Assembly: GCF_014280175.1 (NCBI RefSeq) | Contig: NZ_CP047931.1 | Span: forward strand, 1,470,001 to 1,502,000 | Origin: Synechococcus sp. A15-28 | Lineage (GTDB): Bacteria > Cyanobacteriota > Cyanobacteriia > PCC-6307 > Cyanobiaceae | Length of the DNA: 32,000 nucleotides | Reading direction: 5' to 3' | In this document: positions 2,815 to 21,785 of the stretch, in pieces | Layout: each line of letters starts with the position of its first letter | Numbering within the stretch: the first letter of the stretch is position 1 | The notes under the pieces: model-generated | The model's input: the letters and a program-made list of their open reading frames with translations, nothing else | Databases searched by the model: none | What the model was told of the DNA's origin: nothing | Made by a program: the position numbers and the translations under genes

Positions 2815-3105
2815 GTGGAGCGCCTGTTCGTCTACGGCAGCCTCAAGGCCGGCGCCAGCGCCCATCACCTGCTGCAGAAGACCGTCGCTGAAGTTGAGGG
2901 TGTCTTGAATCAGGTGGAGCTGACCGTGCACGACGGTTATCCAATGCTGCCGGCCGGCTCGCAGCAGGTTCGTGGGGAGATCTACAAAGTTCCAGATGCC
3001 CTCTGGCCTGCGCTGGATGCATGGGAAGACGTGCCCAGGGTGTACAGCCGTCGCCGCCGGACGCTCCTCGACGGCAGAGACGTCTGGGTTTACGAGGCGT
3101 CCTGA
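2815..3105 (+). CDS. Gamma-glutamylcyclotransferase-like (AIG2/GGACT family) protein
   Basis: The 96-aa product starts LFVYGSLK and has the YPML...G.IY pattern of the GGCT-like fold. The start codon is GTG. Confidence 0.7.
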   Translation: MERLFVYGSLKAGASAHHLLQKTVAEVEGVLNQVELTVHDGYPMLPAGSQQVRGEIYKVPDALWPALDAWEDVPRVYSRRRRTLLDGRDVWVYEAS

Positions 3106-3800
3106 ACTGAGGCAGACGGGCAACTCCTGGCGGAGAAATCGCAGGAATACACAGCCGGCTTCTGCCAGCTGAGCGGAATCTCCAGCAGGTCACGGCTACC
3201 GGTGATGGCCTGAGCCAGGAACAACAGCGCAGCCAGAACCGAGGCACTGATGTGCAGGCGCCTGAAGCGAAGATCCCGCAGGATCTCCTGCCGTGCCGCC
3301 AGGGACGCCAACATCAAGCCCGTCACAGCAACCCCCGCCCAGTAGTGGGACTGCCAGAAGTCGCCTGATAGGGGGTTGTCCGACAGTCGCCAGACTTCGG
3401 GCTGGGCGCCGAGGCTGAGCACGCCGGTCCAGGTGATCAGGCTGAAGGCGAGGCGCAGGGATGCGGTCTTGCAGCGGAGCAAGGCCACCAGGCTGGCCAC
3501 GGTGCCTGCCAGCACCATCAGCAGTTGCGCTGCCCGCCAGACCCCACCAGCGAATTCGGATGGGGTGGTTTTGGTGGCGATCACCACGGTGAGGGCCACC
3601 AGCACGATCACCACGACAGCCGCCGCAAGCCAACGGCCGAGATCGCTGTGATCGCTTCCCACTGTGACCGGGTGCTTCACCGAGGCCACCCTTCGCTGCC
3701 GTGTCTGCCAGGCCAGTCGCACCACCACACCGAGCAGGGGGTACACCAGCACCACAGCCAGAACCGGATGCAGGATCCAGAGCCAGTCGACGGTGGTCAT
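3090..3800 (-). CDS. DUF4079-family integral membrane protein
   Basis: Motifs HPVLAVVLVYP, LGAQPEVWRLSDNP..FWQSHYW and AQAITGSRDL are present, and the protein is a paralog of the ORF at 22027-22674. The start is placed at the ATG at 3798-3800, which overlaps the upstream stop as ATGA. The ORF track extends the ORF to 3812. Confidence 0.75.
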   Translation of the reverse strand: MTTVDWLWILHPVLAVVLVYPLLGVVVRLAWQTRQRRVASVKHPVTVGSDHSDLGRWLAAAVVVIVLVALTVVIATKTTPSEFAGGVWRAAQLLMVLAGTVASLVALLRCKTASLRLAFSLITWTGVLSLGAQPEVWRLSDNPLSGDFWQSHYWAGVAVTGLMLASLAARQEILRDLRFRRLHISASVLAALLFLAQAITGSRDLLEIPLSWQKPAVYSCDFSARSCPSASVQDAS

Positions 3801-4273
3801 GGGGATGTCCACAGGTCTCTGCCTGAGACCTTTTCAAAAGACACAGGACGTTGCTTGATGCGCCAGGCCAGTCGCAAATTGATGGCAATGGCCGCGGCCA
3901 GGGCGAGATGAAAAAGATTGCCATTGGGAATCCCCATTCCCTGGAACGCGATCCAGGTGTTCACCCCCAGCAAAAAGCTGTTGATCAGGAACCAGATCAC
4001 AGCCACACCAAGCCGAACGAAGCGGCGATCCCGCAGTACCAATCGGACGGCCAGGCCACAGGTCAAAAGACCGGGTATCAAGCCGATGGAGCTGTAACCG
4101 TGAAGGATGCGCATCGACGCATCTGAATGCGCGTGGCTGAACAGGGCCGCCAGGAGGTTGAGTGAAATCAAGGCTCCCGGGTAGGGGCCAAGGGCATGAC
4201 GCAGCGGAGCCGGCCCATTCATCCAGAGGGCACCACGCAGAAGCGGGTGATGGGGCTGCGCCGGCTGAGACAT
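3797..4273 (-). CDS. Hypothetical multi-pass membrane protein
   Basis: The 158-aa ORF has high-GC coding character and about four hydrophobic helices. It is translationally coupled to the DUF4079 gene. I recognise no family. Confidence 0.6.
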   Translation of the reverse strand: MSQPAQPHHPLLRGALWMNGPAPLRHALGPYPGALISLNLLAALFSHAHSDASMRILHGYSSIGLIPGLLTCGLAVRLVLRDRRFVRLGVAVIWFLINSFLLGVNTWIAFQGMGIPNGNLFHLALAAAIAINLRLAWRIKQRPVSFEKVSGRDLWTSP

Positions 4274-4334
4274 CGCAAGACCCTGGAGGAGAGATCACTC
4301 CCTAAGTTTCAGCACGATCAGCAGCATCGGCCAG

Positions 4335-4388
4335 ATGGCATTTCGAAACTTTTGTCCAGCCCTGCTGAACAAGACCTACTTCAACTAG
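4335..4388 (+). pseudogene. Orphaned native 5' end of the class-V aminotransferase gene (MAFRNFCPALLNKTYFN-stop), left behind at attL
   Basis: An ATG at 4335 opens 17 codons that end in TAG at the island junction. Residues CPALLNKTYFN match residues 10-20 of the intact gene at 12776. Confidence 0.75.
4353..4387. repeat. attL core: 35-bp direct repeat (one mismatch) of 12803-12837
   Basis: TGTCCAGCCCTGCTGAACAAGACCTACTTCAACTA here matches TGTCCAGCCCTGCTCAACAAGACCTACTTCAACTA at 12803-12837. The sequence turns AT-rich immediately to the right. Confidence 0.8.
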
Positions 4389-4458
4389 GACGCACTACCA
4401 TTCTGACAAGCCTAGATCAACTGCAGCACAACGGCTTTTAGAGAATAGCGTTGAGAGC

Positions 4459-4480
4459 TTTAGTCACACCTTTAGTCACA
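4459..4480 (+). promoter_or_regulatory. Two TTTAGTCACA motifs spaced 12 bp start-to-start (candidate integrase arm-type sites, left arm)
   Basis: TTTAGTCACA occurs at 4459-4468 and 4471-4480. The same pair with the same spacing and orientation occurs at 12733-12754. Confidence 0.55.
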
Positions 4481-4583
4481 GAATTTGGACTCCATAGTCC
4501 TGAGGACCAGTCGCGCCAGCTGTTTTCAGGCGTTGTTTGAGCAGATGCTGCTGAAAGCTTGAGCAGACCCAGCCACCAGACAT

Positions 4584-4607
4584 ATATTAGTACGTATGTA
4601 CTGATAT
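4584..4607. promoter_or_regulatory. 24-bp imperfect palindrome immediately upstream of the first island ORF (candidate operator)
   Basis: ATATTAGTACGTATGTACTGATAT matches its own reverse complement at 20 of 24 positions. It ends 6 bp before the ATG at 4614. Confidence 0.4.
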
Positions 4608-4613
4608 CAGGCT

Positions 4614-4862
4614 ATGGGGTCAGAGGGCTTCATTCAAGATCCGGCGACCAAAGAAACCAAGCGGTTCCATAGAGACGAGAGGAGCTGGATCAGAGACCCC
4701 AAGGTCTTTGTCGACACTGGGATACCGATACCGGGAGAACCACCACTCCTCAAGACACGCGTGCACCTGCGTAGGGACGCTGCAGAGCAGCTCTGGAAGG
4801 AGTTACATCGCGTTGGCTGGCAGCAGGTGGACCCTTGTTGGGGAGCCTCTGCTGAGCCGTAA
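4614..4862 (+). CDS. Hypothetical small protein (possibly the DUF1651-like family of marine picocyanobacteria)
   Basis: The 82-aa ORF ends ...AEQLWKELHRVGWQQV. The family assignment is from memory only. An antisense ORF at 4634-4885 is treated as a shadow. Confidence 0.5.
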   Translation: MGSEGFIQDPATKETKRFHRDERSWIRDPKVFVDTGIPIPGEPPLLKTRVHLRRDAAEQLWKELHRVGWQQVDPCWGASAEP

Positions 4863-4900
4863 AGCGGAAGGGGGTACGGGGTCAATGAAGTCCTCGTATG

Positions 4901-4926
4901 TACGTAATGACCCCTCAGAAATTTTT
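4901..4926 (+). repeat. Left copy of a 25/26-bp direct repeat flanking the K+ channel gene
   Basis: TACGTAATGACCCCTCAGAAATTTTT here matches TACGTAATGACCTCTCAGAAATTTT at 6049-6073. Confidence 0.6.
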
Positions 4927-5001
4927 ATTATTCTTTGAGATCCCTTGTATGGCTCAAATAAAAAAAAATTGCAGAAGAGTTTTTTAATGCTTTAACGGCA
5001 T

Positions 5002-5862
5002 TCAAGGATCTTCTCTAGAAATCTCCGATCCCAGAAACTCAGTGAAACCTGCCGAGATAATGCCGATTGGGATTGCAATCACAGCGATCCCGCATATGGC
5101 AGTCAATGCTGCCACAAGTTTCCCCAGTGCTGTTATGGGATAGGTGTCCCCATATCCAACTGTCGTCACTGTAACTACAGACCACCACAGGCATCTTGGT
5201 ATTGATCCAAACTGTTCTTCTTGTACACGCCCTTCCACTAAAAACATTAATACACTACTAATAAAAATAACAACTCCTGAATAAATGGCGGAAATTTGAA
5301 GTTCTTCTTTTTTGGCAGTCAGCGCTTGGTTGAAATACTTGATGCTTTTCCGAAAACGCTTTGAACGACCAACTCTTCCGATCCGCGTCAGTCTAATAAT
5401 CCTGAGCAAATACAGTTCAGGGGAGATGAGACCAAAGATGGTTGGTGCGATTGCAATTAGATCCAGGATTGCCAAAGGCGTAATGGCGTAGTCCAAAGCA
5501 CCTTGAATGCCTCTTCTTGCTCCGTCCCTAAGTGGAGCGACCCAGAGTCGCGCTACATATTCGATCAGGAAGATTATTGATAACGCGACATCAGCTTTTA
5601 CGAGTAAATCTCCCAGTGATGATCGAATAACAGGTTCTGTAGCGATGATCGCCACTCCAATGGACAAGACGATCATCAGACCTATTGCCTTGACGGCATT
5701 AGTCGCCCTTCCTTGCTCGTCCGTAGAGTTCAACGAGTGGAAGAGTTTTTCTCGGAGAGTGTGCACGACAACTGGACTTTGCCAGTCCTTATCTTGCTGT
5801 AACTCATCGTTCGGCGCCACTAGCATCCTTTTCGCCAGATCCCCCCCCCTTGACCCAAACAC
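5002..5862 (-). CDS. Voltage-gated (6TM, Kv/KvAP-like) potassium channel
   Basis: The selectivity filter TVTTVGYGD is present. An S4-like segment has regularly spaced basic residues (LRIIRLTRIGRVGRSKRFRK). There are six hydrophobic helices. The start is uncertain: GTG at 5862 or ATG at 5826. Confidence 0.85.
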   Translation of the reverse strand: MFGSRGGDLAKRMLVAPNDELQQDKDWQSPVVVHTLREKLFHSLNSTDEQGRATNAVKAIGLMIVLSIGVAIIATEPVIRSSLGDLLVKADVALSIIFLIEYVARLWVAPLRDGARRGIQGALDYAITPLAILDLIAIAPTIFGLISPELYLLRIIRLTRIGRVGRSKRFRKSIKYFNQALTAKKEELQISAIYSGVVIFISSVLMFLVEGRVQEEQFGSIPRCLWWSVVTVTTVGYGDTYPITALGKLVAALTAICGIAVIAIPIGIISAGFTEFLGSEISREDP

Positions 5863-6048
5863 CTGAAGCAGATGCAGAACAGGCGTGCTGGACGCAAGTT
5901 CGATCTAAACGGAAGAGATATGGGACCTTGTGGATGGTCTGAAGTAAGCCAGGACCTCATGCGTCTGTATGACCTGGCAGCTCTTCTCCTATGTCAGCGA
6001 CCAACACTGCTACACGTTGCTGACCTGGGCAAGTGAGGTGCAGTCAAA

Positions 6049-6073
6049 TACGTAATGACCTCTCAGAAATTTT
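6049..6073 (+). repeat. Right copy of the direct repeat flanking the K+ channel gene
   Basis: See 4901-4926. The 11-mer ACGTAATGACC also recurs at 20519-20529 in island 2. Confidence 0.6.
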
Positions 6074-6142
6074 AATTGATTGTTAGCAGGTACTGATTGA
6101 TATTGGACTTGTCTTATAATGTCCATAGAGCTGCAATCTCCA

Positions 6143-6889
6143 ATGAAAGCACTTTTTAGAATGTATAAGCCTGTTACTGTTGTGCTGACTAGCGCAATAA
6201 GCATCCTCTGTGTTCAACAGAAGGCAATTGCAGATGATCATGTCAGGATTGATAAGCCAGAAGACGAGACTTATGGTGAATTTACTAATGATTCAAACTA
6301 TACAACTGAATATTCCGAAGGTGAAATCTCACAAGGACATAATAGATGCCTACAAGCAGCTGATTACAAGGGGTGTATGGAATACCAGGAAGGCTCAAAT
6401 ACGAGGATAACTGAAACTGGAAGTGAACCTGGGACTGTTGACGTAACAGAGCCAAAACCATATAACTACGATCCTGAGTCAGTTATGCAATTAAAAATTC
6501 GTGGCTCATATGGAAGGTATCTCACATTCATAGGGAAGACAGTCAATGAATATGCAGGCACTAGTGGTTACATGTTGCCTGGCTCGCCTGGATCTGTTAG
6601 TTGTAACACCTATGGAGGCTATGGAGCGTATTCCAGTACATATACCACTTGTAATAGATCAGGATATGTCGCACCTACATATGTACCTGGGACATCTGGT
6701 GGAGTGCAAAATAGAAAGTACCGCTATGAGCTGGATTGCCAAGATATGACGTTTGATCGAAAAGGTGATTATGCAGGAGGTATGTCAAACAAGGGATGGA
6801 TGAGTGTGTATAATGATCCGACTGCTCAGGCTGTAGCAAATAGGTATTGTTCTTCAATTGGATCACTGCCAAGAGCCGCAGAGAGGTAA
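6143..6889 (+). CDS. Hypothetical secreted protein (signal peptide; Gly/Tyr/Ser-rich, Cys-containing)
   Basis: From the ATG at 6143 the N-terminus is MKALFRMYKPVTVVLTSAISILCVQQKAIA, which is signal-peptide-like. The ORF track starts 8 codons earlier. I recognise no family. Confidence 0.65.
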   Translation: MKALFRMYKPVTVVLTSAISILCVQQKAIADDHVRIDKPEDETYGEFTNDSNYTTEYSEGEISQGHNRCLQAADYKGCMEYQEGSNTRITETGSEPGTVDVTEPKPYNYDPESVMQLKIRGSYGRYLTFIGKTVNEYAGTSGYMLPGSPGSVSCNTYGGYGAYSSTYTTCNRSGYVAPTYVPGTSGGVQNRKYRYELDCQDMTFDRKGDYAGGMSNKGWMSVYNDPTAQAVANRYCSSIGSLPRAAER

Positions 6890-6934
6890 GAACAATGTTT
6901 GTATACGTCTTTAAATGAAAGCTTCACTGAACCA

Positions 6935-7027
6935 ATGAACGGAAAACTCCTTGTCGTTGGAATCGTCACCTTCTTTATTGTTTTCTTTGTCTATGAGTCC
7001 TTGTTGATGCGCGGCTTACCACACTGA
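6935..7027 (+). CDS. Possible 30-aa single-helix membrane peptide
   Basis: Hand translation gives MNGKLLVVGIVTFFIVFFVYESLLMRGLPH. It is below the ORF-track size cutoff, and nothing supports it beyond hydrophobicity. Confidence 0.3.
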   Translation: MNGKLLVVGIVTFFIVFFVYESLLMRGLPH

Positions 7028-7181
7028 GTCACGTTATCAGTCTCCTCCGGCATAAGTAAATTCATTAACTCTTCCCGAAATAAGCTTTCTCCTCACAAGA
7101 CGGAGTGTATCTGTTGCTCCGTAGTGGTGACCCTATAAGTAGTGACATCACTGCGGGGGCTGGCGTTCATAAGGACCCTGG

Positions 7182-7685
7182 TCATTGAGTGAGCTTTACT
7201 GTAGGACCAACAATACGAAGAGGTTCACCCGTCCAATCCTCTAAATCTTTCCTGAAAAACTTCCAGCCATTGCTGTCACCCGAAAATAATATTCGTGCAT
7301 TTCTAATATCTGCAGAAGTGGTCTTATATTCGATACTGTATTCATAGTCAACAGCATTCGGACCATAGACACAAATGAAACCACAGTTCTTAGCATCTTG
7401 CGGAACTTGCCGTTCTGTTATTGAGAGAATCTGATTACTCTCAATCCCCTTGCTGTTGTCAACCAGCATTCGCCCCATTTTAAATTTAATCCTGCAATTA
7501 TTACCCACCTTCTTGCACCACGCTTTGTGCGTCTTATTAGATGAAAATTTCAATGATTGCTCTCGGTCTACCTCTGCTGCTCCTAGATCAGCCCAAGCTG
7601 GAATGGTAGCCAAAAGTGAGGCACCAATAAAAGCAGCGGTAGCCAAGAAACGACGCACATGAGAAGTAGCTCTCAACATTTTCAT
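7182..7685 (-). CDS. Hypothetical secreted protein, paralog of the 7682-8100 locus
   Basis: A signal peptide is present (RRFLATAAFIGASLLATIPAWA). It shares the motifs AWC..GN.C[KR][IV].F and IEY[KR]...KF[FW]R.L with the upstream gene. Confidence 0.65.
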   Translation of the reverse strand: MKMLRATSHVRRFLATAAFIGASLLATIPAWADLGAAEVDREQSLKFSSNKTHKAWCKKVGNNCRIKFKMGRMLVDNSKGIESNQILSITERQVPQDAKNCGFICVYGPNAVDYEYSIEYKTTSADIRNARILFSGDSNGWKFFRKDLEDWTGEPLRIVGPTVKLTQ

Positions 7686-8100
7686 TCTTTGATATTTACG
7701 TCAACTTGAACCCCGTCGCGATCTTTACAGTTGCGACAAGCCCTTTTTAAATCTCGCCAAAACTTTCGAGCTGTTGGGTAATGGGCTATCCATATTTCGG
7801 CAAATTCCAAGGAGCCATCGTCATTTCTGTACTCAATACCAAAAGTTAGACCATCCCAAACATAATTTCCCGACCAATCCTTTGTAATATACGTAATATC
7901 GTCGAAGTCAACAGAGTCTTTATCATTAACTGTTATTTTTCGTTCGCGAACGAAACTTTGCAATCGTTCCCCTTTTCTCCACACCATGCATCATAAGTCG
8001 CACTTTTGCTCTTAGACGCGGCTTCCCCTAGCCCTGAATGAACAGGCACCGCAAGCAGGGAGCTAGCAATCAGTAGAGGCAGAAGTAGTAGAAAGCGCAT
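7682..8100 (-). pseudogene. Frameshift-split paralog of the 7182-7685 secreted protein
   Basis: A 55-aa ORF (8100-7933) encodes MRFLLLLPLLIASSLLAVPVHS...YDAWCGEKGNDCKVSFANEK-stop. The homologous continuation ITVNDKDSV... lies in the -1 frame, which is the 101-aa ORF at 7682-7987. The switch is at an A5 run at 7936-7940. Confidence 0.6.
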
Positions 8101-8217
8101 ATCAAGCGGAGACTTACTAGTCTATTCTGATCCGTCTTGGCAATAGTGCCAACCAAGTTCTTCAGCCTCTGCCAGGTCTGCTCACAGAAACGCAGGCAAC
8201 GAAAATTATCTGAGCTG

Positions 8218-8391
8218 CTAGTGGCATTTGTAAGTAACAGTTGATGTCTTAGAGGGGTTCACAAGTATTTTCATGCCCAAGACGCGGTGATACGCCAGAC
8301 TTGGAGTCACTACTTCTCTTTGGCCGTTTTCAGCCCACTTCTTGAACTCCTCTACTTCTCGTTTGAAGGAGTCGGACATTGGTTCATTCAT
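8218..8391 (-). CDS. Possible 57-aa ORF, perhaps the tail of a decayed gene
   Basis: Hand translation gives MNEPMSDSFKREVEEFKKWAENGQ.... The frame stays open for about 100 nt upstream of the ATG without a start codon. Confidence 0.25.
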   Translation of the reverse strand: MNEPMSDSFKREVEEFKKWAENGQREVVTPSLAYHRVLGMKILVNPSKTSTVTYKCH

Positions 8392-8546
8392 TTCTTTGAA
8401 GCCATTGTATTTGTGTTGATGTGGACATAGATAGAAGGGAGACCAGAAGGTTGTCTCTTTGTTTCCTTCACTCCCATTTGCTTGAGCCTGACTTTTTCAC
8501 GTAGTTGATCTAAATAATTTGACACTGATAGATTGGTTTTAATTGT

Positions 8547-8816
8547 TTATTGATGATTGTGGTTGAACACCTTTACGGTCCTCCTCATAATCATCGAGCC
8601 AAACCCGGCCATCAATCCCATGCGTCTAGCTTCCTCCATGCGATACCTACGGCCAGTTCGTAGCCGTGGCATCGGTCCATAAACTCCAGGATTCTTCTCA
8701 AGACCAAATTCAAGCCACCAACCTTGGTTATTTGGAAGGTTCTGGGGTGGACTACATACCTTGCAGGTGCGTTCCATGGCAGCCTTGGCTGTCTTGGTGT
8801 CTATTCCTGCGTTCAC
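8547..8816 (-). CDS. Hypothetical protein, possibly a truncated zinc-ribbon protein
   Basis: The 89-aa ORF contains CKVC. An in-frame CQSC lies just upstream of the GTG start but has no canonical start codon ahead of it. Confidence 0.35.
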   Translation of the reverse strand: MNAGIDTKTAKAAMERTCKVCSPPQNLPNNQGWWLEFGLEKNPGVYGPMPRLRTGRRYRMEEARRMGLMAGFGSMIMRRTVKVFNHNHQ

Positions 8817-9026
8817 GTACGTTGTAGCACCACAGGACTGGCACTCAATGACTGTCCTGACACGGTTATTGACTTTATTTTCTCAGACGTCAAGACTACA
8901 CTTGTTAATACCTTGCTGATCGAGTGCTTTATCGGTGCTACCTATGCATTCCCGATAACAAGGCAGCTTACTGCAGAGACAGCTGCTTCTTGATACTTGC
9001 TATAACAAATGTCGTCCTATAGATGA

Positions 9027-9554
9027 TCACTCCGGGATCAATACAGTATCAATCACGTGGATTGTGCCATTCGTAGCTTTGATATCTGCCTTCGTGACTG
9101 TGGAGTGGTCAATAAAAACCATTCCATCTTTTGTCTTGATTGTAATTGACTTACCATTGAGTGTTTCAGCACTAGACAACTTGACGACATCTGCAGCTTT
9201 TACATTTCCAGCAACAACGTGATACGTAAGGATATCAGTTAATTTCTCTTTGTTTGAAGGCTTTAACAACAATGCAACTGTCCCATCAGGAAGCTTTGCG
9301 AAGGCCTCATCTGTTGGTGCAAAAACGGTGAAAGGACCTTCACCCTTGAGTGCTCCTACTAATCCAGCCTCACCAAGCGCTGCCGCTAGGGTTTCAAAGC
9401 TGCCCGTAGTAACAGCCGTGTCAACTATGTCCATGGAGGGCATGGTGTGATCCTTATCACCCATATGACCTCCTGCGAAAGCGCTCGTAGAGGTCAACAG
9501 GCTTAGGGACAATGCGGCAGCCCCTAAACGAAGCGTGCGATGGAGAACTGACAT
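9027..9554 (-). CDS. Secreted fasciclin (FAS1) domain protein
   Basis: A signal peptide is followed by [15 protein letters not shown]...LTYHVV.G......[12 protein letters not shown], the classic FAS1 H1/H2/YH motifs. Confidence 0.85.
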
Positions 9555-9758
9555 TTGCGTGAATCAAAGTCCATAAATCTTAACAAGGCACCGGTCTCTT
9601 CGGTGAGACATCCTGGCTTGGCTCTGGTTTCAGTGAGCCATAGAAAGAGAAGGCGGGGCACGAAAAGATAAAACCTACAGAATTGACAGGATGCAGTTGC
9701 TACCTGTCAACCCTGCAGATCTGATCGAAGACGCTTGGCGTAAATTCTTTTGCATGCT

Positions 9759-9950
9759 TCACTTTCTTACTACCTTTGTCTGCTGTGGAAGAGGATGCTT
9801 ATAACCTTGACTTCTGATGTAGTCAGCCAATTGTTCAAGCTCGTTTTTCTGATAAGTCATATTTGACAACTTCTGTTCTCTGCTTTTCTGGATGTGATCA
9901 CTATTGATTTGATTGTTCATTGATAAATGACTATTGTGATTTTTGATCAA
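9759..9950 (-). CDS. Hypothetical small protein
   Basis: The 63-aa AT-rich ORF starts with TTG, and an internal ATG lies at 9920. I recognise no family. Confidence 0.3.
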   Translation of the reverse strand: MIKNHNSHLSMNNQINSDHIQKSREQKLSNMTYQKNELEQLADYIRSQGYKHPLPQQTKVVRK

Positions 9951-10180
9951 TCAGATATTAGATTAAAGATTGGGTATTAGTTCACCTACATCACGAAGGA
10001 CGTAGGAGACTAATACCAATACGAACCATTGGAATTGAACCAATGCAAGGTCACCAGACGTTCGTTGAGCTAAACATACCCATCCATAAGGACGGCTTTT
10101 TTTATGACATGTGATTTAGATGAACCAGTACACCCAATCTGGTTGCTAACGGCCAATCACCTCCGTTAGCTAAGACAACC

Positions 10181-10204
10181 AACAGGTAATGCTCCTGTTT
10201 TTTA
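10181..10204 (+). terminator. Rho-independent-type terminator with no upstream plus-strand ORF
   Basis: The stem AACAGG/CCTGTT has a 7-nt loop and runs into a T tract. A weaker hairpin followed by T7 lies at 10080-10103. Confidence 0.45.
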
Positions 10205-10619
10205 TTCGCTTGAAGGTTGTTGTATCCATACAGTATGAATAGTAATATCAAGATGTCCCTTCAATGGACATAGTGATATTCAGATTCAAGCTCGGTAAAA
10301 AGATCAAGTAAACCTATTTATTTAACTTGCTGTTTGTTTTGTCCATCCACTAAACAAAGGGTTGATAAGTAGAAACACAAAGCGTTTCCAAGATCAACCA
10401 GGAGTTAGTACAAGTTAAATACAATGTGTCTTTTGGTTTACTTGTCTTTGGGCGGTACTTACGAAATGTCCGTCTCGCTGCGCTCGACCTGGACATTAAT
10501 AAAGGGGATGGTTTGTCATCCCCAAAGGTACAAAAGGAAGAGTACACCCACTCCCTTCCCCCTGTATAACTGACCACTCTAATTAAACCCAGGTGGGGAC
10601 TGATGTCTTAGGGTTACCT

Positions 10620-11027
10620 CTAACTTGCCTGCTTAGCCCTAGCAGAAGCAGTGGCTGTGAAAAATGACATGGCATGTCTTACTGCATCAATCATGTCAGG
10701 GTGAACCACACGATAAATCCGATGTTTACTACCTTTAGATGACGGCATTAAGCCTTCAGCCTGAATAAAACCTTTGTCAAGGAGCAAATCAATGGCATTA
10801 ATTACCTTTGCTTTCCCCATACTAAGTGTTTCAGCAATGGCCTTGTGTGACCAATTTGTTGTGCCACCACAGTCTCTACGATCTTTCCATTTCCTGTACA
10901 TCCGTTTATCATATCGTAGATCCTGATACGCAGATTGATACATCAGGCTATACACGGCTACTGCTGCATAGCCCAATTTTGCTATTTCGGTAATTGGAGG
11001 AACGGTGTCTTTAAGAATAACTGTCAT
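10620..11027 (-). CDS. Winged-helix DNA-binding protein, candidate replication initiator or regulator of the island
   Basis: The 135-aa product has an HTH-like segment SHKAIAETLSMGKAKVINAIDLLLDKGFI. The iteron array begins 47 bp upstream of its start. Confidence 0.65.
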   Translation of the reverse strand: MTVILKDTVPPITEIAKLGYAAVAVYSLMYQSAYQDLRYDKRMYRKWKDRRDCGGTTNWSHKAIAETLSMGKAKVINAIDLLLDKGFIQAEGLMPSSKGSKHRIYRVVHPDMIDAVRHAMSFFTATASARAKQAS

Positions 11028-11073
11028 TTAGATAATACTTACTTGTGTTCTATTTGGAACGCATTAGTTGACT

Positions 11074-11247
11074 AGGTTGTGATCAGGGTCGGATCGTCAG
11101 ATCCCCCTATATAAGGGTCGGGTCTCCAGATCCCCCTGTATAAGTGTCGGATCGCCAGATCCCCCTGTATACGTGTCGGATTGCTGCTTCCCCCTATATA
11201 ACTGAGGGGTCTCTACTTCCCCCTGTATAAGGGTCGGATTGCGTGAC
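11074..11247. repeat. Iteron array: five full copies and one partial copy of a 29-bp unit (consensus about CCCCCTRTATAAGKGTCGGATYGC)
   Basis: The CCCCC blocks start at 11103, 11132, 11161, 11190 and 11219, an exact 29-bp period. A half copy lies at 11074-11102. Confidence 0.85.
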
Positions 11248-11537
11248 GGTATTGAACCTGGCTGGCCACTCAGAGACGCCATACGCGTCTGTATTGATTA
11301 CTAGATCCTTCTGTGACGGAATCCCTTTGTTTTGCATTTTGGATACCTTGTAGAGGCATATAGGGGTCTCTGGCGCTTTTGTGATTGTGACTCCTTTGAC
11401 TTGACGTGCTCACAATGCCGCCTGAACCCGATTACAAGTAATTGCTAGTGATTGTGAAATTGATTGAACTTTTGTAGTATTTGAGCAAGCTTACGAATGA
11501 TGCTGGACAGCCTTGTCCATTTTGTCTCTTCAAAGTC

Positions 11538-12731
11538 TTAGAGAAGATTCACAGCTCGCTCCAATTCACTCCAAGGAGTAGCGCCATATGCCATAGAAAT
11601 AGAATTAGGTGTGTGGCCAAGCAAAGTAACGACAACAGCCTCATTCATGTTATGTGCTCTCAATATGGTTGCAGCTCTGTCTCTAAAACCTTTGGGAGTT
11701 ATTCCAACTATTTTCCTACACGGCTTTGAAAGATTGACTCCCCAACGCTTATTAGCCCCTTGGTACTGACCCGGCCACAAAAGATCTTTCCTTTCGCGCA
11801 TCTCAATAGACAATGACTTCAATCTTGGATGAATTGGAATTGACCTCGCAGAGGAATCGCTCTTCAAGGGTCTTAACGCATTGGGTCGGATCAGTATCCG
11901 GTCATCAAGCAGGTCTTCTGCTTGCAAGCCAGCAATCTCAGCAAGTCGAGCACCAGTGAAATAAAGGAACTTGAAAATCTCTATCTGTTGACCCGACCCA
12001 TTCCACTGTGATGGATCGGTGATTGTGACATCAAGTTTTCTGACTTTAACGACCTTGATCCGTGTATTTAAGCCCTTGAATATATGGGTGCAATCGGGTC
12101 GTAGTTCACAAAGCACTGACCAGAGTCCACAAAGAAATGCGAGACGCGTTTTGACAGTTGAAGGACTTAGACGTGACAGCAACGAGGAGCGATAAGCAAC
12201 GGCGTGTTGGCGTGAAGCAGACGTTGGGTACGTGACTGCAGAGTGTGCCAAGAAATCGTCCAAGGCAGCCTTCCAAGCGATCTCCGTCCGTGCTGCAGGT
12301 GACTTCAGTGCCTTGGCCTGCTGGATCAGCTCTTCTTTGGAAAGGTGGTCTGGTGGCTGCTTCTCACCCTTCAAAATCGCTCTGTATCTGGCCGCTTGAT
12401 CGAGAGTTATCGACCCTTCCTCAACCTCAACATCACAGCCAGTAAGCAGCGTTTCAACAATTTCTGGATCAGACAGATCAAACCGTTGAGGAACCAAATC
12501 AATTAGCTCGTCGCCAGTCAGTGAAACCTCATTGCGAGCCTCAGCAATCAGTCGATCTGTCTTTGCTGCAAATGCAGCTGAGAGCCTCTGTGCGACGCGG
12601 TAGGTCGATCCAGCAGCCTCAACCCAAATCGTTTTGCCTATGACTGGCTGAACGTCCTTGGGAACGCCACGCTGCAACTGGTAACCATTGCGGGCCTGAC
12701 GCACGTATGTCGGATGCTTCCGAAAAGGCAC
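11538..12731 (-). CDS. int: Tyrosine recombinase / phage-type integrase
   Basis: The 397-aa product has box I (FTGARLAEI), LKSDSSARSIPIH, box II (GFRDRAATILR...LLGH) and a C-terminal Tyr (SMAYG). The gene abuts attR. Confidence 0.9.
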   Translation of the reverse strand: MPFRKHPTYVRQARNGYQLQRGVPKDVQPVIGKTIWVEAAGSTYRVAQRLSAAFAAKTDRLIAEARNEVSLTGDELIDLVPQRFDLSDPEIVETLLTGCDVEVEEGSITLDQAARYRAILKGEKQPPDHLSKEELIQQAKALKSPAARTEIAWKAALDDFLAHSAVTYPTSASRQHAVAYRSSLLSRLSPSTVKTRLAFLCGLWSVLCELRPDCTHIFKGLNTRIKVVKVRKLDVTITDPSQWNGSGQQIEIFKFLYFTGARLAEIAGLQAEDLLDDRILIRPNALRPLKSDSSARSIPIHPRLKSLSIEMRERKDLLWPGQYQGANKRWGVNLSKPCRKIVGITPKGFRDRAATILRAHNMNEAVVVTLLGHTPNSISMAYGATPWSELERAVNLL

Positions 12732-12732
12732 C

Positions 12733-12754
12733 TTTAGTCACAGTTTTAGTCACA
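12733..12754 (+). promoter_or_regulatory. Two TTTAGTCACA motifs spaced 12 bp start-to-start (candidate arm-type sites, right arm), plus a partial TAGTCA at 12758-12763
   Basis: The motif pair is identical to 4459-4480. It lies between the integrase start and the substitute aminotransferase start, so it may also overlap both promoters. Confidence 0.55.
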
Positions 12755-12775
12755 CCCTAGTCAGCCAAAAGCCAG

Positions 12776-13957
12776 ATGGACACAAACAAGCTGCGATCAC
12801 AATGTCCAGCCCTGCTCAACAAGACCTACTTCAACTACGGCGGCCAAGGCCCCCTGCCGACGCCATCGCTGGAGGCGATCCAGGCCAGCTGGCGGCGCAT
12901 TCAGGAGCTGGGCCCCTTCACCACGGATGTATGGCCATTCATCGGGGCCGAGGTGTCCAGCACCCGGCGGCGCCTCGCCCAGCTCTGCGGCGTGGCCCCC
13001 CATCGCCTGGCCCTCAGTGAAAACGTCACGAGCGGTTGTGTGCTGCCGCTGTGGGGACTGCCCTTCGACAGTGGCGATCGTCTGCTGATCAGCGACTGCG
13101 AACACCCTGGGGTTGTGGCCGCCTGCGTGGAGCTGGCCCGGCGTGAGGGGCTGACGATCGACACCCTGCCGGTGAAGCAGCTGCGCGGCGATCAACCCAG
13201 CACCGATGCGGGCGTGATGGACGCCCTGGAGCAGAGCCTCACCCCCCGCTCGCGGCTGGTGGTGCTGAGTCATCTGCTCTGGAACACGGGCCAGATCATG
13301 CCCATCCCCGCCGTCGCGGAACGGCTCGCCCAGCACCCCCAGGCGCCCTATCTGCTGGTGGATGCCGCCCAGAGTTTCGGGCAGATTCCTGTGCAGGACG
13401 CTGCTGCCGCCGCTGACATCTATGCCTTCACCGGCCACAAGTGGGCCTGTGGCCCGGAAGGCCTGGGTGGCGTGGCCCTGTCGGAACGGGTGCTGAACGA
13501 AGGCCAACCTACCGTGATCGGCTGGCGCAGCTTGCAGGATGAAAGCAAAGCGGACCTGAGCAGCTCCGATCCGTTCCACCACGACAGCCGCCGTTTTGAA
13601 GTCGCCACCAGCTGCGTGCCCCTGATGGCGGGCCTGCGCTGTTCGCTGGAGTTATTGGACCAGGAAGGATCGGCGGAAACCCGACTGATGCGGATCCGTC
13701 AGCTCAGTGGTGATCTCTGGAGCGGACTGCGGGAGATGCCTGGAGTCAAGCCTCTGATGGAGGTGCCACCGGCCAGTGGCCTGGTGAGCTTTCAGCTGAG
13801 CTGTGACGCAGCTCCTGCAGAGGTGGTGCAGCAACTTGGCCAACAGGGCCTGTGGATCCGCGACCTGGCGGACCCCAGCTGCCTGCGCGCCTGCACCCAT
13901 GTGACCACAACTGAGGCTGAAACGGAGGCACTGACGACGGCAATTGCACGATATTGA
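12776..13957 (+). CDS. Class-V aminotransferase / cysteine-desulfurase-like PLP enzyme
   Basis: The 393-aa product contains YFNYGGQGP, LLVDAAQSFG and FTGHKWACGPEG (PLP lysine). The first 9 codons and the upstream region are island-derived. Confidence 0.85.
   Translation: MDTNKLRSQCPALLNKTYFNYGGQGPLPTPSLEAIQASWRRIQELGPFTTDVWPFIGAEVSSTRRRLAQLCGVAPHRLALSENVTSGCVLPLWGLPFDSGDRLLISDCEHPGVVAACVELARREGLTIDTLPVKQLRGDQPSTDAGVMDALEQSLTPRSRLVVLSHLLWNTGQIMPIPAVAERLAQHPQAPYLLVDAAQSFGQIPVQDAAAAADIYAFTGHKWACGPEGLGGVALSERVLNEGQPTVIGWRSLQDESKADLSSSDPFHHDSRRFEVATSCVPLMAGLRCSLELLDQEGSAETRLMRIRQLSGDLWSGLREMPGVKPLMEVPPASGLVSFQLSCDAAPAEVVQQLGQQGLWIRDLADPSCLRACTHVTTTEAETEALTTAIARY
12803..12837. repeat. attR core: direct repeat of 4353-4387
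   Basis: See the attL entry. The core lies inside codons 10-21 of the aminotransferase gene. Confidence 0.8.
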
Positions 13958-15805: not shown

Positions 15806-16119
15806 CAGTCCGGCACCGGATCGCAACCACAGGGGGTGAAGGGGTGGCAGCGCAACAGCCGCCGAACAGTGAGCCACCCTCCTTTCCAGGGACCATGCCG
15901 CTGAATCGCCTCCAGGCCATAGGCGCTGCAGGTGGGAGTGAAACGACAACGCGGACCGATCAGCGGCGAAATGAAACGCCGGTAAAAGCCGATCAACGCC
16001 AGCATCACCCAGGCCAGGCCACGGTTCAAGCTGGTGACGATGGGAGCCAGTGGGCTGCCCGATACAGTGGTTGGTTCGTGCACTGGCGAAGGCACCTGGG
16101 GCTGATCCGGTTCCAGCAT
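15805..16119 (-). CDS. yidD: Membrane protein insertion efficiency factor YidD
   Basis: [32 protein letters not shown] is present. The start is chosen at the ATG at 16117-16119 so that the gene does not overlap rpsD. Confidence 0.8.
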
Positions 16120-16159
16120 GCCCAAACCCGGCACGAATCCAACCTCTACCTTCCCATCC

Positions 16160-16768
16160 ATGGCTCGATACCGCGGCCCTCGTCTGAGGATCACGCGGCG
16201 CTTGGGAGACCTCCCTGGTCTCACCCGGAAGGCCGCAAAGCGGTCCTATCCCCCCGGTCAGCACGGCCAAGCCCGTCGCAAGCGCTCTGAATACGCAATC
16301 CGTCTCGAAGAAAAGCAGAAGCTTCGCTTCAACTACGGCATCTCCGAGCGTCAGCTCGTGCGTTACGTGAAGAAAGCGCGCGCCCAGGAGGGTTCCACCG
16401 GAACCAACCTGCTCAAGCTGCTCGAGAACCGTCTCGACAATGTCTGTTTCCGCCTGGGCTTCGGTCCCACCGTGCCCGGCGCCCGTCAGCTGGTGAACCA
16501 CGGCCACGTCACCGTCAACGGCCGCGTCACCGATATCGCCAGCTACCAGTGCAAGGCCGGCGATGTGATCGCCATCCGCGAGCGCAAGTGCAGCAAGCAG
16601 CTGGCTGAAGCCAACCTCGAGTTCCCGGGTCTGGCCAACGTGCCGTCCCACCTGGAACTGGACAAGGCCAAGCTCAACGCCAAGGTCACCGGTCGCTGTG
16701 AACGCGAATGGGTTGCCCTGGAGATCAACGAACTGCTGGTGGTGGAGTACTACTCCAGAAAGGTTTAA
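16160..16768 (+). CDS. rpsD: 30S ribosomal protein S4
   Basis: [22 protein letters not shown]...[10 protein letters not shown] matches S4. The true ATG is 14 codons inside the track ORF. The last codons and the stop are supplied by island-side sequence. Confidence 0.95.
16749..16764. repeat. 16-bp direct repeat ACTACTCCAGAAAGGT at the rpsD 3' end (also at 20099-20114)
   Basis: The match is an exact 16-mer. The sequence turns AT-rich right after it here. At 20099 it is followed by a stop codon and a strong terminator. Confidence 0.7.
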
Positions 16769-16904: not shown

Positions 16905-18326
16905 CTAATTAATTAGCGTCTGATACATTACCCTTGAAAGCAATCTAATGCCATCGTCATCTTTCAAAGTTTGAAAATCAGGCATATTATTGTAAAAAAT
17001 TGACAAATCTTCTAGCAATTCAGGATGAAATTGGAAAGTAAACGATTTTCGTATTTTTTGAGTTTGAAAATCTAAATAATTTATGCAAGTAGCTGCTACT
17101 TCTGTGCAGACTTCTCCATTTATACGAGTTGAGCAAACAATTTCAACAGATGTTGGTAGATTCAAAATCCAAGATAGATCTGATATCAATATCTTCTTTC
17201 TTATAGGATAAACTGCCTTGTGCAATTCTCCGAATGCCCAATTAGCAAAAAGAATTGCTTCCTGGTTAACTACATCGCTATGAAACATTTCTATATGGAG
17301 GTTTTTTTCATATGTAATAAATTTTTCGACAACACCCAGTTCATGCTCGTGAGATAGCTCATGACACATAAGTAAATTTGAAAATTCATCACTAGGATGC
17401 AGTCCAGAATGCGAATATTTCTTTAGGTCTACTTTGCCGACCTCAGGCTTATGGTTAAGCGCAACTGCAAAACAACTATCATTCCAGCCTTTTGCAACTA
17501 TCTTTTCATTTCTATAAACACATAAACTTTCTCCAACCAAGATAATTTCCGTACACTTCTTCCTGAGGTTGTCTAGATAGTAATTACTATCTTCAGAATT
17601 AATCAAAAATGATAAACAGTCATCAGTCGCTCTTTTGATTATCTCTATATGAGCCTGAGCAGCAAGTTGATGACCTAGGCAAATAAATATAGCAGGAGAT
17701 GAGTTTGAATCCCTTGAAAGTATAATTTCCTCAGCAACTTCTTGCAAATCTTCTAGCTTAATACTTGTATCATCAAAGCTTTTGCAATCTTTTAAAGTTG
17801 GATAACCCCCCTCTACGAAACACATAATACAGTTTTTAATCAATTCTATTAAAAGTTCATTATTTAAAGGACCAGCCTCCCAGAGTGGTATCAATATTGA
17901 ATCGCAGTCGGCTATATATTGAGACAAGTACGCAATATTTATAGATGCTTTAACCTCATTCCCATATGGATTTACGCCGACATGCTTAGCGGGCTCTATT
18001 ATACAAATAGAATTTCTATAAATTCCAGGATATTTTAGAATTTCTTTTAAATCATTATTCGATCTTACAACTCTTTCCAAAGGACCTTCTTCTCCCCATT
18101 GACTATTGGCAAGTAAATCCAATTTCTTATCATAAAAAGGTTCAAGCAAACTATTTGAATCTCTATCATTTATGAAATCGGCCAAAAGAAATTCAATACT
18201 TGTTCGATTTGATTTTCCAGGCCTGAAAAAGCCAGCCATAGCTTTAAATACTAACATTTTCCATATTAGCTTCTTTGTCAACCGTATTTTAGTATCTAGT
18301 ACGACAGAGTGGCATAGCATTAGCAC
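16905..18326 (-). CDS. Atypical class-I glutamine amidotransferase-like protein (473 aa)
   Basis: A nucleophile-elbow motif AIFICLGHQ lies near residue 216 and FQFHPE near residue 434. The gene is very AT-rich. The spacing and the N-terminal extension are much larger than in canonical GATase1 domains. The start is uncertain (GTG 18326 or ATG 18320). Confidence 0.7.
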   Translation of the reverse strand: MLMLCHSVVLDTKIRLTKKLIWKMLVFKAMAGFFRPGKSNRTSIEFLLADFINDRDSNSLLEPFYDKKLDLLANSQWGEEGPLERVVRSNNDLKEILKYPGIYRNSICIIEPAKHVGVNPYGNEVKASINIAYLSQYIADCDSILIPLWEAGPLNNELLIELIKNCIMCFVEGGYPTLKDCKSFDDTSIKLEDLQEVAEEIILSRDSNSSPAIFICLGHQLAAQAHIEIIKRATDDCLSFLINSEDSNYYLDNLRKKCTEIILVGESLCVYRNEKIVAKGWNDSCFAVALNHKPEVGKVDLKKYSHSGLHPSDEFSNLLMCHELSHEHELGVVEKFITYEKNLHIEMFHSDVVNQEAILFANWAFGELHKAVYPIRKKILISDLSWILNLPTSVEIVCSTRINGEVCTEVAATCINYLDFQTQKIRKSFTFQFHPELLEDLSIFYNNMPDFQTLKDDDGIRLLSRVMYQTLIN

Positions 18327-19822: not shown

Positions 19823-19901
19823 GGTTTGTCCCTCAGAAAATTCCAAGTCCCCGTTCCGTGGCTTGGAGTGTCTGCGCCCCTGCGTACAGAGGTGAACGTT
19901 T

Positions 19902-19917: not shown

Positions 19918-20098
19918 GACAGATCATACGCCCGGGTCAAGCCCATGAACGTGCGTAACAACCTCGCTTAATCGCCCGCGCAGGTTTGTCGCTATTTGTC
20001 TTTGTTGAGCCAAGTGCCTGATGGGACAAGGCATATACTCAAACCCTACTCAAACTCTAAAAACAGGGTCAAAAAGCAATGCAGCACTGAAAACGTGG

Positions 20099-20118
20099 AC
20101 TACTCCAGAAAGGTCTGA
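20099..20118 (+). pseudogene. Remnant A of the rpsD 3' end (..YSRKV-stop)
   Basis: ACTACTCCAGAAAGGTCTGA encodes the same C-terminal residues as 16749-16768, with a TGA stop. Confidence 0.7.
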
Positions 20119-20148
20119 TCCGTTTCAAGACCTCTGTGTCCCCCGATG

Positions 20149-20181
20149 CGCAACCCTGGGTTCAGGGTTGCGTTTTTCTTT
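20149..20181 (+). terminator. Orphaned rho-independent terminator following rpsD remnant A
   Basis: The stem is CGCAACCCTG-GGTT-CAGGGTTGCG, followed by TTTTTCTTT. Confidence 0.75.
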
Positions 20182-20312
20182 GGCTGATCCCCAGATACTG
20201 CAGGCGCTCACAAGCCGGGACGGTGCAGAAAACTTTTCCAAACTCCAGCCCCCATTAACCGAAAAAGGTGGCAGGACTTTTTCTTAAGGCAAGAGAATCT
20301 GATTCCAAGCAG

Positions 20313-20504
20313 TCACTCGGCGATTTTCAAAGACTGCTCTAAATGATTAACGTGTCTTTCCAGGGTGATTTCACGACGGTGCATCTCAAGCTCACGCTCA
20401 TGGGTTTTCTCATCGATCCTGGTGCGGCCGCCATTCATCATCTCCGAGTAAGTCAGAGCTCTTGGCTTTTTTCGAGGAAGGTCATGTTCGTGCATCCAAG
20501 TCAC
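20313..20504 (-). CDS. Hypothetical small charged protein
   Basis: The 63-aa ORF has a GTG start or an ATG at 20495. The ACGTAATGACC motif lies 15 nt upstream. Confidence 0.35.
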   Translation of the reverse strand: MTWMHEHDLPRKKPRALTYSEMMNGGRTRIDEKTHERELEMHRREITLERHVNHLEQSLKIAE

Positions 20505-20663
20505 TGATTAATCGACTAACGTAATGACCAACCTAGTGGCACTCAAGGAAATGTCACCCTAATGCACCAATTCAGACCAGAATCTTAAGAATTCGGCTCA
20601 GACAATTCAAACAAGCGCCCAACACATTAATTCAAGACCTATCAACCAAGTGAGCTCATCCCC

Positions 20664-21785
20664 TTGAACAGTGACGCCACCACAAACCTTCGTTCAAGCG
20701 CACTTAGGCGCATTGATTTGAACATCAAGCCTTACATAAAAAGTGATGACATAATTGCCGCTTGGCAAATCATTAGCACGATAATCCCGTTAATCATATG
20801 CTGCATTGCAATTGGCAATATCACCAGTCAGCTAACATTAGTTTCAGTCATTCTAACCCCAGCACTGTTTCTATTAATAATCCTATTTTTGAGTAGAAGC
20901 TTTTCGTTGATGCACGACTGCGGTCACCACAGCTTATTCAGGTCAAAAACTGCTAATCGGATTGCCGCCTTTGCCTTGAGCATTATCCATGCAATGCCTC
21001 ATCACCCCTGGTCTAGGGGCCATGCATTTCACCACAAACACAATGGTAATTGGAACCGCTACAGAGGCCCGTCCGCTTTAACAACGCTTCGCGAGTACAA
21101 GGCAATGAACAAAGGCTCTCAATTCATTTACCAACTCTTGCGGCACCCCATATTACTTCTTCCGGGAGGTTTTTACTATCTCGTTATTAAACCAAGAGCT
21201 GCGCTACTCCTTGGACTCATTGAGTTTGTCGTCAAAGCAGTAGCCGATGGATTTCGCAAACTTTCAAACGGACATAACTTCAGCATACGTTCGTTTTTAA
21301 ACAATCACAAATCAAGCTTCTTTTATACCAAAGAGGAAGTTTACGACACTATTGCCAATACCACGTGCGTTGCACTCGCCTGGTACTTTATTGGGAGCAC
21401 GATTGGTCACTGGCATTTCTGGATTTTATACATCTCAGCCATGAGCGTCAGTGCAGCGATCATGATTGCTGTATTTTTTATTCAACACAACTTTCCAGGA
21501 TCCTATACTAGCAGCGACGAAAATTGGGACTACTTTAAAGGCGCCATCGAAGGCTCATCTTTTCTCATTATGCCTCGTTTCCTAAACTGGTTTACAGCAG
21601 ATATTGCTTACCATCATGTTCACCATTTATCCGAAAGAATCCCTAATTACCGCCTACGCATGTGCCATGAACACAACGAGAAAAAATTCGGCAGCGTTAG
21701 GCGACTGCATCTGCATGAATTCCGGAACTGTTTTTCATTGATCCTTTGGGACGATGAAACCCTTCAACTCACCTCAATCGAATGA
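20664..21785 (+). CDS. Membrane fatty-acid desaturase family protein
   Basis: Three histidine boxes are present: HDCGH, HAFHH (HAFHHKHN) and HHVHH. Several transmembrane segments are present. The start (TTG) is uncertain. Confidence 0.85.
   Translation: MNSDATTNLRSSALRRIDLNIKPYIKSDDIIAAWQIISTIIPLIICCIAIGNITSQLTLVSVILTPALFLLIILFLSRSFSLMHDCGHHSLFRSKTANRIAAFALSIIHAMPHHPWSRGHAFHHKHNGNWNRYRGPSALTTLREYKAMNKGSQFIYQLLRHPILLLPGGFYYLVIKPRAALLLGLIEFVVKAVADGFRKLSNGHNFSIRSFLNNHKSSFFYTKEEVYDTIANTTCVALAWYFIGSTIGHWHFWILYISAMSVSAAIMIAVFFIQHNFPGSYTSSDENWDYFKGAIEGSSFLIMPRFLNWFTADIAYHHVHHLSERIPNYRLRMCHEHNEKKFGSVRRLHLHEFRNCFSLILWDDETLQLTSIE

Follow-up and report, generated by a model that had tools for sequence, protein, structure and literature searches.

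A small integrative element very probably inserted into the 5' end of a class-V aminotransferase gene in Synechococcus sp. A15-28, with its own start codon and N-terminus

Background

The islands of marine picocyanobacterial genomes have so far been explained mainly through elements that target tRNA genes, and the locus described here raises the question of how a block of low-GC (guanine plus cytosine) DNA came to interrupt a protein gene just behind its start codon. The block lies in a stretch of 32,000 nucleotides of Synechococcus sp. A15-28 (contig NZ_CP047931.1, positions 1,470,001 to 1,502,000; assembly GCF_014280175.1), which we refer to as the window and number from its first letter. 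According to the original prediction, an integrative island had entered the 5' end of a class-V aminotransferase gene and had brought its own start codon and N-terminus. Our analysis leads to much the same answer: positions 4388-12802 are very probably a small, cargo-carrying integrative element, inserted by a tyrosine recombinase into codons 7-17 of the aminotransferase gene. The signs by which we recognise such an element, direct repeats (attL and attR) with an integrase gene beside one of them, an unoccupied target in relatives and, in a related element, an attP junction, were found.

Results

Direct repeats and interrupted reading frame

A 35 bp direct repeat, with its attL copy at 4353-4387 and its attR copy at 12803-12837, matches at 34 of 35 positions (the mismatch is G4367 versus C12817) and encloses a block of 8450 bp with a GC content of 45.2%, compared with 62.5% upstream and 65.5% downstream. 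This agrees with the repeat and the AT-rich block of about 8.4 kb that had been claimed. The right part of the repeat, the 20-mer AACAAGACCTACTTCAACTA, occurs in the window at 4368 and 12818 only, even with up to three mismatches allowed, and no matches are expected from shuffled sequence; the repeat is therefore not a dispersed motif. In the attR copy these 20 bp (12818-12837) are invariant in nearly all copies examined. The integrase gene said to lie against the right repeat is an intact minus-strand open reading frame (ORF) of 397 aa (11538-12731) that is read from the attR end into the island and starts 72 bp from the repeat.

The two reading frames across the repeats were also as described. 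On the left, ATG4335-GCA-TTT-CGA-AAC-TTT-TGT and the codons that follow, up to AAC-TAG (4386-4388), encode the 17-codon stub MAFRNFCPALLNKTYFN*, the orphaned 5' end of the native aminotransferase gene (4335-4388, plus strand), whose TAG is made at the junction. Upstream of it lies the native divergent intergenic region (4274-4334, plus strand), between the start of a gene for a 158 aa protein (3797-4273, minus strand) and ATG4335; the region aligns with L001, an empty-site locus described below, and presumably holds the native aminotransferase promoter, now split from its gene. On the right, ATG12776 opens MDTNKLRSQCPALLNKTYFNYGG / MDTNKLRSQCPALLNKTYFNYGGQGP..., a 393 aa class-V aminotransferase (PF00266, E value 5e-32). 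Because an in-frame TAG lies upstream at 12758-12760, ATG12776 is the sole possible start of this protein. The start codon and N-terminus supplied by the element comprise nine codons, MDTNKLRSQ (12776-12802, plus strand), fused in frame to the host gene, and the resulting class-V aminotransferase/cysteine-desulfurase-like core gene (12776-13957, plus strand) is intact as a fusion and convergent with murE.

Both start codons of the window (4335 and 12776) share the context GCCAGATGG at 9 of 9 positions. The mimicry of the start context that had been proposed is thus real in the window but is not general, as CCAGATG is a trait of the element family while native start contexts in other hosts vary. 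The agreement within the window may come from shared ancestry or from chance.

Empty sites in relatives

We scanned for orthologues of the aminotransferase gene using one genome per species, which gave 80 picocyanobacterial loci, nearly all with murE convergent downstream (loci and contigs are designated by L numbers). At L001, homologues of both genes that precede the stub in the window (158 aa, and 240 aa with a DUF4079 domain; 61% and 68% identical) stop 80 bp from the aminotransferase gene. L013, L011, L005, L010 and L027 (WH7803) are similarly unoccupied and, like L017, have the DUF4079 gene near the aminotransferase gene. Native starts at empty sites resemble the stub of the window: ..FRELCPAL in L001, MFRDLCPAL in L030 and MLRDLCPAL in several others. 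At the DNA level, window positions 4338-4360 match the native 5' end of L001. MDTNKLRSQ was absent from relatives without the low-GC block, and the expectation that such relatives would start with a stub-like native N-terminus was thus borne out.

Integrase and attachment site

The 397 aa ORF matches the integrase family PHROG 1 (E value 1e-23), while its PF00589 score of 26.8 bits is slightly under the cutoff of 27.1 and its N-terminus has a weak match to DUF6538. When the ORF is aligned with eight homologues, the most distant of them 36% identical, R262, K290, R350, H373 and Y382 are invariant and position 347 is K or H. A single-sequence phmmer search of the PDB gave no match and a profile was required; the profile of the alignment found XerC-like 4a8e as the best match (E value 7e-10), and also XerD, XerA, IntI4 and HP1 integrase. 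Judged by its catalytic residues and these profile matches, the ORF belongs to the tyrosine recombinase superfamily.

The motif TTTAGTCACA has four exact matches in the 32 kb, in two pairs at 12 bp spacing (12733/12745 and 4459/4471), both within the element. The second pair (4459-4468 and 4471-4480) belongs to the P' arm (4388-4480), 72 and 84 bp from the core; in the window, L003, L084 and L087 the distance of this pair from the core is 72-73 bp, and it is the same in L085. The first pair lies in the P arm (12732-12775), a divergent spacer of 44 bp that separates the start of the integrase from the new start of the aminotransferase and is conserved in 12 of 12 related copies; a degenerate third copy, CCTAGTCAGC, at 12757 contains the in-frame TAG. 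The pairs look like arm-type integrase sites and may bind the N-terminal domain of the integrase. As in attP of the lambda type, a short core is flanked on both sides, at tens of bp, by direct copies of an unrelated second motif; a difference is that the P-arm repeats here lie within the 44 bp that separate the start codon of the integrase from the one supplied to the host gene. The junction behind the core, TAG-GACGCACTA, is also present in L003, L084/L085 and L087, and with this sequence conserved the orphaned host frame terminates immediately.

Two metagenome contigs, L084 and L085 (9.3 and 11.9 kb, 44% GC throughout, no host-like flank), carry a contiguous attP junction in the order integrase start, arm repeats, ATGGAAACAAACGAATTGCGATCACTG, core, GGACGCACTAG..., arm repeats. 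The predicted joining of the element ends through one core was thus found, in a related element with an integrase 81% identical to that of the window and not in the window's own element.

Evidence for movement between hosts comes from integrases of 98.9-99.7% nucleotide identity that adjoin aminotransferase genes only ~78-85% identical. Synechococcus A15-24 (L096) has the same arrangement as the window, with 98.9% nucleotide identity in the integrase versus 84.6% in the aminotransferase and 85.1% in murE. We compared its island within a 10 kb flank, beyond which its left end lies: the segments shared with the window island are 96-97.5% identical, and the middle is wholly replaced. In the metagenome contig L081, identity is 99.5-99.7% for positions 11317-12731 and 98.2% for the P arm (12732-12787), and it drops to ~78% from 12788 onward, in the aminotransferase gene. 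A 195 kb contig, L087, holds a sister element of 4.8 kb with the attL stub VTMRDICPALQNKTYFN*, and its attL and attR share an identical run of 26 bp.

Another contig, L094 (JACLAD010011909.1), holds most of the island, and its left end is without attL and arm repeats. Positions 1-1407 of its reverse complement correspond to window positions 4493-4947 joined to an inverted copy of 19985-20857 (92% identity). The join reflects either an inversion that involved the island and a site ~15 kb off, or a chimeric assembly.

The original prediction took the right 20 bp of the repeat as the likely place of the crossover. This run is the longest stretch common to attL and attR in the window and is invariant in essentially all copies, and it is still the best candidate, so that the crossover most likely fell within AACAAGACCTACTTCAACTA as judged by sequence comparison. 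It could not be pinned there, however, because the 30 bp to the left of the run (12788-12817) are mosaic among near-identical elements: 7 of 30 positions differ between the window and L081, whose elements are otherwise 99.7% identical. The window and its related host A15-24 share an unusual core-proximal CAA-TGTCCAGCCCTGCTC, and most element copies, the attP contigs included, have CTG-TGTCCTGCCCTGCAG. When parental-type sequences were compared, no single crossover position accounted for the window, A15-24 and L081 together. The mosaic segment was probably produced by recombination between a resident and an incoming element, for example by tandem integration and then deletion.

Recurrent use of the site

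Of 75 species loci, 8 have an integrase or its remnant in the 2.5 kb that precede the core. It is full-length in four of them (L003, L028, L029, L050) and reduced to an N-terminal remnant in the other four (L009, L014, L016, L059). The L003 element (MIT S1220) is decaying, since its integrase is split into two ORFs and one arm repeat is missing. The attL stub of L003 (..DQATQIRLESPALANKIYFN*; 2343-2440) is not native-looking and the 2 kb upstream (1-2400) has only 46% GC, which suggests that an older element, or else a tandem remnant, separates the DUF4079 gene from the current element.

Integrases of 37-60% identity occupy the same place with different arm repeats. Further members were found by protein look-ups: in L098 and L099 an integrase 54% identical to that of the window lies directly against the aminotransferase gene; in L101-L105 a 58% identical integrase comes with a module of PriCT_2 primase and AAA_25 helicase; and in L097 a 49% identical integrase is accompanied by a resolvase and a VapE-like primase-helicase, with an attL that has no immediate stop. 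The arm repeats are specific to subclades (TTTAGTCACA in that of the window, and CCTTTAGCTACGGCTTTAGTCACA, CTTGACCCACGC and TGGGCCACA), and by eye that of Prochlorococcus MIT 0707 seems to be ATACCAACA. Common to all subclades is the core AACAAGAC(C/G)TACTTCAACTA, which encodes NKTYFNY; no other stretch near the start of the aminotransferase protein is as well conserved. The target is used in marine Synechococcus, freshwater Cyanobium and low-light Prochlorococcus.

A second subclade (L016, L028, L014, L039, L040, L044), with CTTGACCCACGC arm repeats, has no ATG or GTG before the conserved LRxL, and a TTG inside CTTGACCCACGC is the only in-frame start candidate. Three of its members (L039, L040 and L044) keep the CTTGACCCACGC motif, and integrase-like sequence was not detected within 2.5 kb upstream of the core; their gene 5' ends look like fossils of past elements.

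Supplied N-terminus and expression of the fused gene

Nine codons of the form M-x4-L-R-x-x precede (C/M/L)PAL in all copies, both in the subclade of the window and in relatives 54-60% identical, with GTG as the first codon in L098. Across copies the Leu codon is CTG, TTG or CTA and the Arg codon CGA, CGG or CGC, and conservation through synonymous changes indicates that the supplied segment is translated. The pattern agrees with the native LRxL-CPAL motif, and NCBIfam TIGR01976 aligns from residue 2 of the fused aminotransferase. We take the supplied LRxx-CPAL motif to be the R-x-x-FP-x-L start of SufS/CsdA-type enzymes. As the segment belongs to a conserved protein, an element that replaces it must copy an LRxL-type segment.

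The native promoter region at 4274-4334 is now 8.4 kb from the gene, behind a stop codon and opposite-strand genes, so that transcription of the fused gene should start inside the element. From this geometry alone, the element would control expression of the host aminotransferase.

Alternative explanations

Several results weigh against the interpretation of 4388-12802 as an integrated and mobile element. Neither an excised form of this exact element nor an empty site in this strain was seen, and L100, which is of the window's own lineage and 99.6-99.8% identical throughout, is also occupied. L084 and L085 show no terminal overlap, so that their attP junction may stem from a tandem array instead of a free circle, although either origin would make it a product of site-specific recombination. 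An excisionase was not identified. A scan of 12600-12800 revealed no sigma-70-like promoter, and as promoter-like sites were overall no more frequent than in shuffles, the new promoter could not be placed. The integrase and the attP junction had no match among 2.9 million viral contigs, which leaves no evidence of packaging. Finally, the mosaic 30 bp to the left of the invariant run indicate that the history of the locus exceeds one clean integration.

This last point bears on an alternative that we consider possible, if somewhat doubtful, namely that the island did not integrate into this genome recently but is an old, inherited occupant whose interior was replaced by a related incoming element through homologous recombination, for example by tandem integration and deletion between the integrase genes. 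The alternative concerns the arrival of the island and not its nature, and the integrase may or may not still act. It would account for the CAA-type variant that the window shares with the related host A15-24 and not with most copies, and for the break of L081 identity at 12788, 15 bp left of the repeat and not within it. It is also favored by the A15-24 island, where a middle replaced altogether lies alongside shared segments and an integrase of the high identities given above, and by the second, older stub that L003 appears to hold upstream. Against it, both att sites, all four exact arm repeats and the integrase are intact, and the drop from ~99% to ~85% identity falls at the att site and not in the flanking core genes, where homologous transfer of the whole island would place it.

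It is quite unlikely that the element is instead a phage satellite, an island like the phage-inducible chromosomal islands or what is left of a prophage, and depends on a helper phage for its movement. Its size and its layout, with an end integrase, a small DNA-binding protein and iteron-like repeats, are satellite-like, and relatives of its integrase are linked to primase/helicase modules (PriCT_2 and AAA_25 in L101-L103, VapE-like in L097), but neither in the window island nor in L085 did Pfam and PHROGs reveal genes for a capsid, a terminase, packaging or interference, and the viral contigs held no match for the integrase or the attP junction. A third reading, in which the 35 bp repeat arose by chance, is dispersed or stems from a local partial duplication of the gene's 5' end, and has nothing to do with the island ends, is as good as ruled out: a longer duplication of the aminotransferase 5' end, in host-like GC, does occur at L061, but the 20-mer of the window is found twice only with none expected, and unrelated hosts share the conserved sequence that follows the left copy (GGACGCACTA... 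and the arm repeats), which the attP contigs show joined to the integrase end.

The L061 duplication repeats the first ~100 bp of the aminotransferase gene 2.2 kb upstream (7755-7900 versus 9953-10100, GC 0.66). It reaches well past the att core and is a partial gene duplication, not an att repeat.

Cargo genes of the island

The first plus-strand gene after attL encodes a DUF1651 protein (4614-4862; PF07864, E value 3e-22). It is followed by a minus-strand gene (5002-5862) for an ion channel of the voltage-gated or K+ type (PF00520, E value 2e-26; PF07885, E value 7e-14), the product of which is 98% identical to the copy in the A15-24 island. Between 6119 and 8816 lie cargo ORFs without an assigned function, at 6119-6889 (plus strand) and at 7182-7685, 7682-8100 and 8547-8816 (minus strand), a stretch with no Pfam, PHROG or PADLOC match that is swapped for other sequence in the A15-24 island. 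Several of these proteins are probably secreted, as judged by N-termini resembling signal peptides. One, of 167 aa, has a signal peptide followed by the motif W-C-x-K-x-G-N-x-C. Two overlapping minus-strand ORFs next to it (7682-7987 and 7933-8100) together resemble this protein by eye and may be a frameshifted paralogue of it. A fasciclin-domain protein (PF02469, E value 7e-39) is encoded at 9027-9554 on the minus strand.

Closer to the integrase, a minus-strand gene (10620-11027) encodes a winged-helix DNA-binding protein of 135 aa with weak NCBIfam matches to Sta1/Lrs14. Its AlphaFold model (pLDDT 74) has a generic winged-helix fold, and a fold search returned only generic matches of the MarR, Lrs14 and Rep-N-like kinds, with E values above 0.004, which cannot separate a regulator from a replication initiator. 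The modeled fold makes the protein a candidate element regulator, excision factor or replication initiator. Its homologues form 299 clusters in metagenomes and adjoin the integrase in L083, L090 and L094. Upstream of the gene is an iteron-like array (11085-11242) of 5.3 copies of a 29 bp unit with the motif CCCCCTRTATAA, and one extra unit of the CCCCCTRTATAA type lies on the downstream side at 10555-10573. An array of this kind is also present in L094, and the entire winged-helix and iteron module is absent from the A15-24 island. A PADLOC scan of ten island ORFs found no defence system, none of the cargo proteins matched a phage family in PHROGs, and Rfam had no match inside the island.

Other features of the window

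A Glutamine-II riboswitch aptamer was detected at 19842-19901 on the minus strand, at the edge of a lower-GC stretch (58.5 bits versus a gathering score of 33; E value 7e-12). Between rpsD (16118-16768) and higher-GC DNA, a block of 35% GC contains a 473 aa ORF (16905-18326, minus strand), the sole family match of which is a sub-threshold one to GATase; A15-24 has a 450 aa gene at the same position. This block looks like a second small foreign insert, one without an integrase. Two DUF4079 membrane-protein paralogues lie one on either side of the island region (3090-3812, minus strand; 22027-22674, plus strand), and a tblastn search with the first of them also matched a weaker paralogue downstream in some loci. 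A 799 aa protein (25361-27760, minus strand) joins EF-hand motifs to an Erv1/Alr sulfhydryl-oxidase domain, an unusual combination for a cyanobacterium.

Discussion

The attP proposed for this element would span ~200 bp and consist of a P arm with two exact and one degenerate copy of TTTAGTCACA, a 27 bp module of ATG plus eight codons, the core, and a P' arm with two copies of TTTAGTCACA. Its 35 bp core would copy the host codons for CPALxNKTYFN, and the start of the P' arm would put the host frame into a TAG. Recombination at the core would leave the 17-codon stub orphaned behind the native promoter at attL and, at attR, would fuse the rest of the gene to the start codon and N-terminus of the element. 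The N-terminus of the fused enzyme would then be (M)DTNKLRSQCPALLNK, its transcription would start in or just upstream of the 44 bp spacer, and the element would still be able to excise.

A bolder interpretation, which we think rather improbable, joins these steps to the recurrence of the site: a diversified clade of integrases in cluster-5 picocyanobacteria would time and again have replaced the start codon, N-terminus and promoter of a single core gene, and occupancy by the integrase could directly gate expression, given the position of the arm-type sites in the 44 bp spacer and of the TTG start candidate inside CTTGACCCACGC in the second subclade. In lineages with integrase remnants only, the seemingly native 5' end of the aminotransferase gene would be the fossil of a past element. 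If this were true, integrase occupancy of the arm sites in the 44 bp spacer would tie a sulfur/pyridoxal-phosphate enzyme to the state of the element.

With a protein gene as target, the element has to provide a core gene of its host with a functional translation start and probably with a promoter, and it would offer a natural example of a mobile element that permanently takes over the 5' control region of a housekeeping enzyme. The ~200 bp attP together with the integrase is also a candidate tool for site-specific insertion in strains that are hard to engineer; AACAAGACCTACTTCAACTA, the target core, hardly varies across the group.

How does this element compare with known systems? We found no description of this aminotransferase target site in the literature. 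Islands and prophages that restore the protein genes they enter are well known, and have been surveyed with TIGER/Islander (cited in PMC12884075). As in those, attP carries a copy of the displaced gene end and the target stays functional, but mostly it is the 3' end that is restored, whereas here the 5' end with the start codon, and presumably the promoter, is replaced. Insertion at the 5' end of a protein gene had been said to be described much less often than insertion at the 3' end of a tRNA gene, which is in keeping with the 7 of 73 tyrosine integrases of streptococcal integrative and conjugative elements (ICEs) that use 5'-end targets (ftsK, rbgA, ebfC; PMC4701971); Tn5253, for example, integrates at the 5' end of rbgA (PMC6079316). 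These ICEs share with the window element a tyrosine integrase, direct repeats over the conserved 5' end of an essential or core gene and restoration of the frame, and in some cases the upstream region including the promoter is replaced (PMC4701971). They differ in that the N-terminus of their target is reported to be unchanged (PMC4701971), whereas here six native residues give way to nine different ones. They are also conjugative and tens of kb in size, while the window element is smaller, and Pfam and PHROGs found none of the island ORFs to have domains of a relaxase, a coupling protein or type IV secretion.

The comparison is closest with the tycheposons, cargo-carrying integrative elements of Prochlorococcus reported at seven tRNA/tmRNA genes; the preprint that describes them mentions recombinases not associated with tRNA genes and names no target for these (bioRxiv 10.1101/2020.12.28.424599). 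Shared features are a marine picocyanobacterial host, a size of 2-10+ kb, an inward tyrosine recombinase at one end, low-GC cargo of a niche type, an optional small replication module beside the integrase, repeated and tandem use of one site, and decayed remnants. Relatives of the window integrase (49-58% identical) are likewise linked to primase/helicase genes, although the window island itself has no recognisable primase, helicase or polymerase, only the winged-helix protein and the iterons. The main departure is the target, a tRNA/tmRNA gene in tycheposons versus the 5' end of a protein gene here, with no tRNA or tmRNA gene in the window. By host, size and layout, the element is thus a tycheposon-like variant that targets the 5' end of a protein gene and alters the N-terminus of the host protein.

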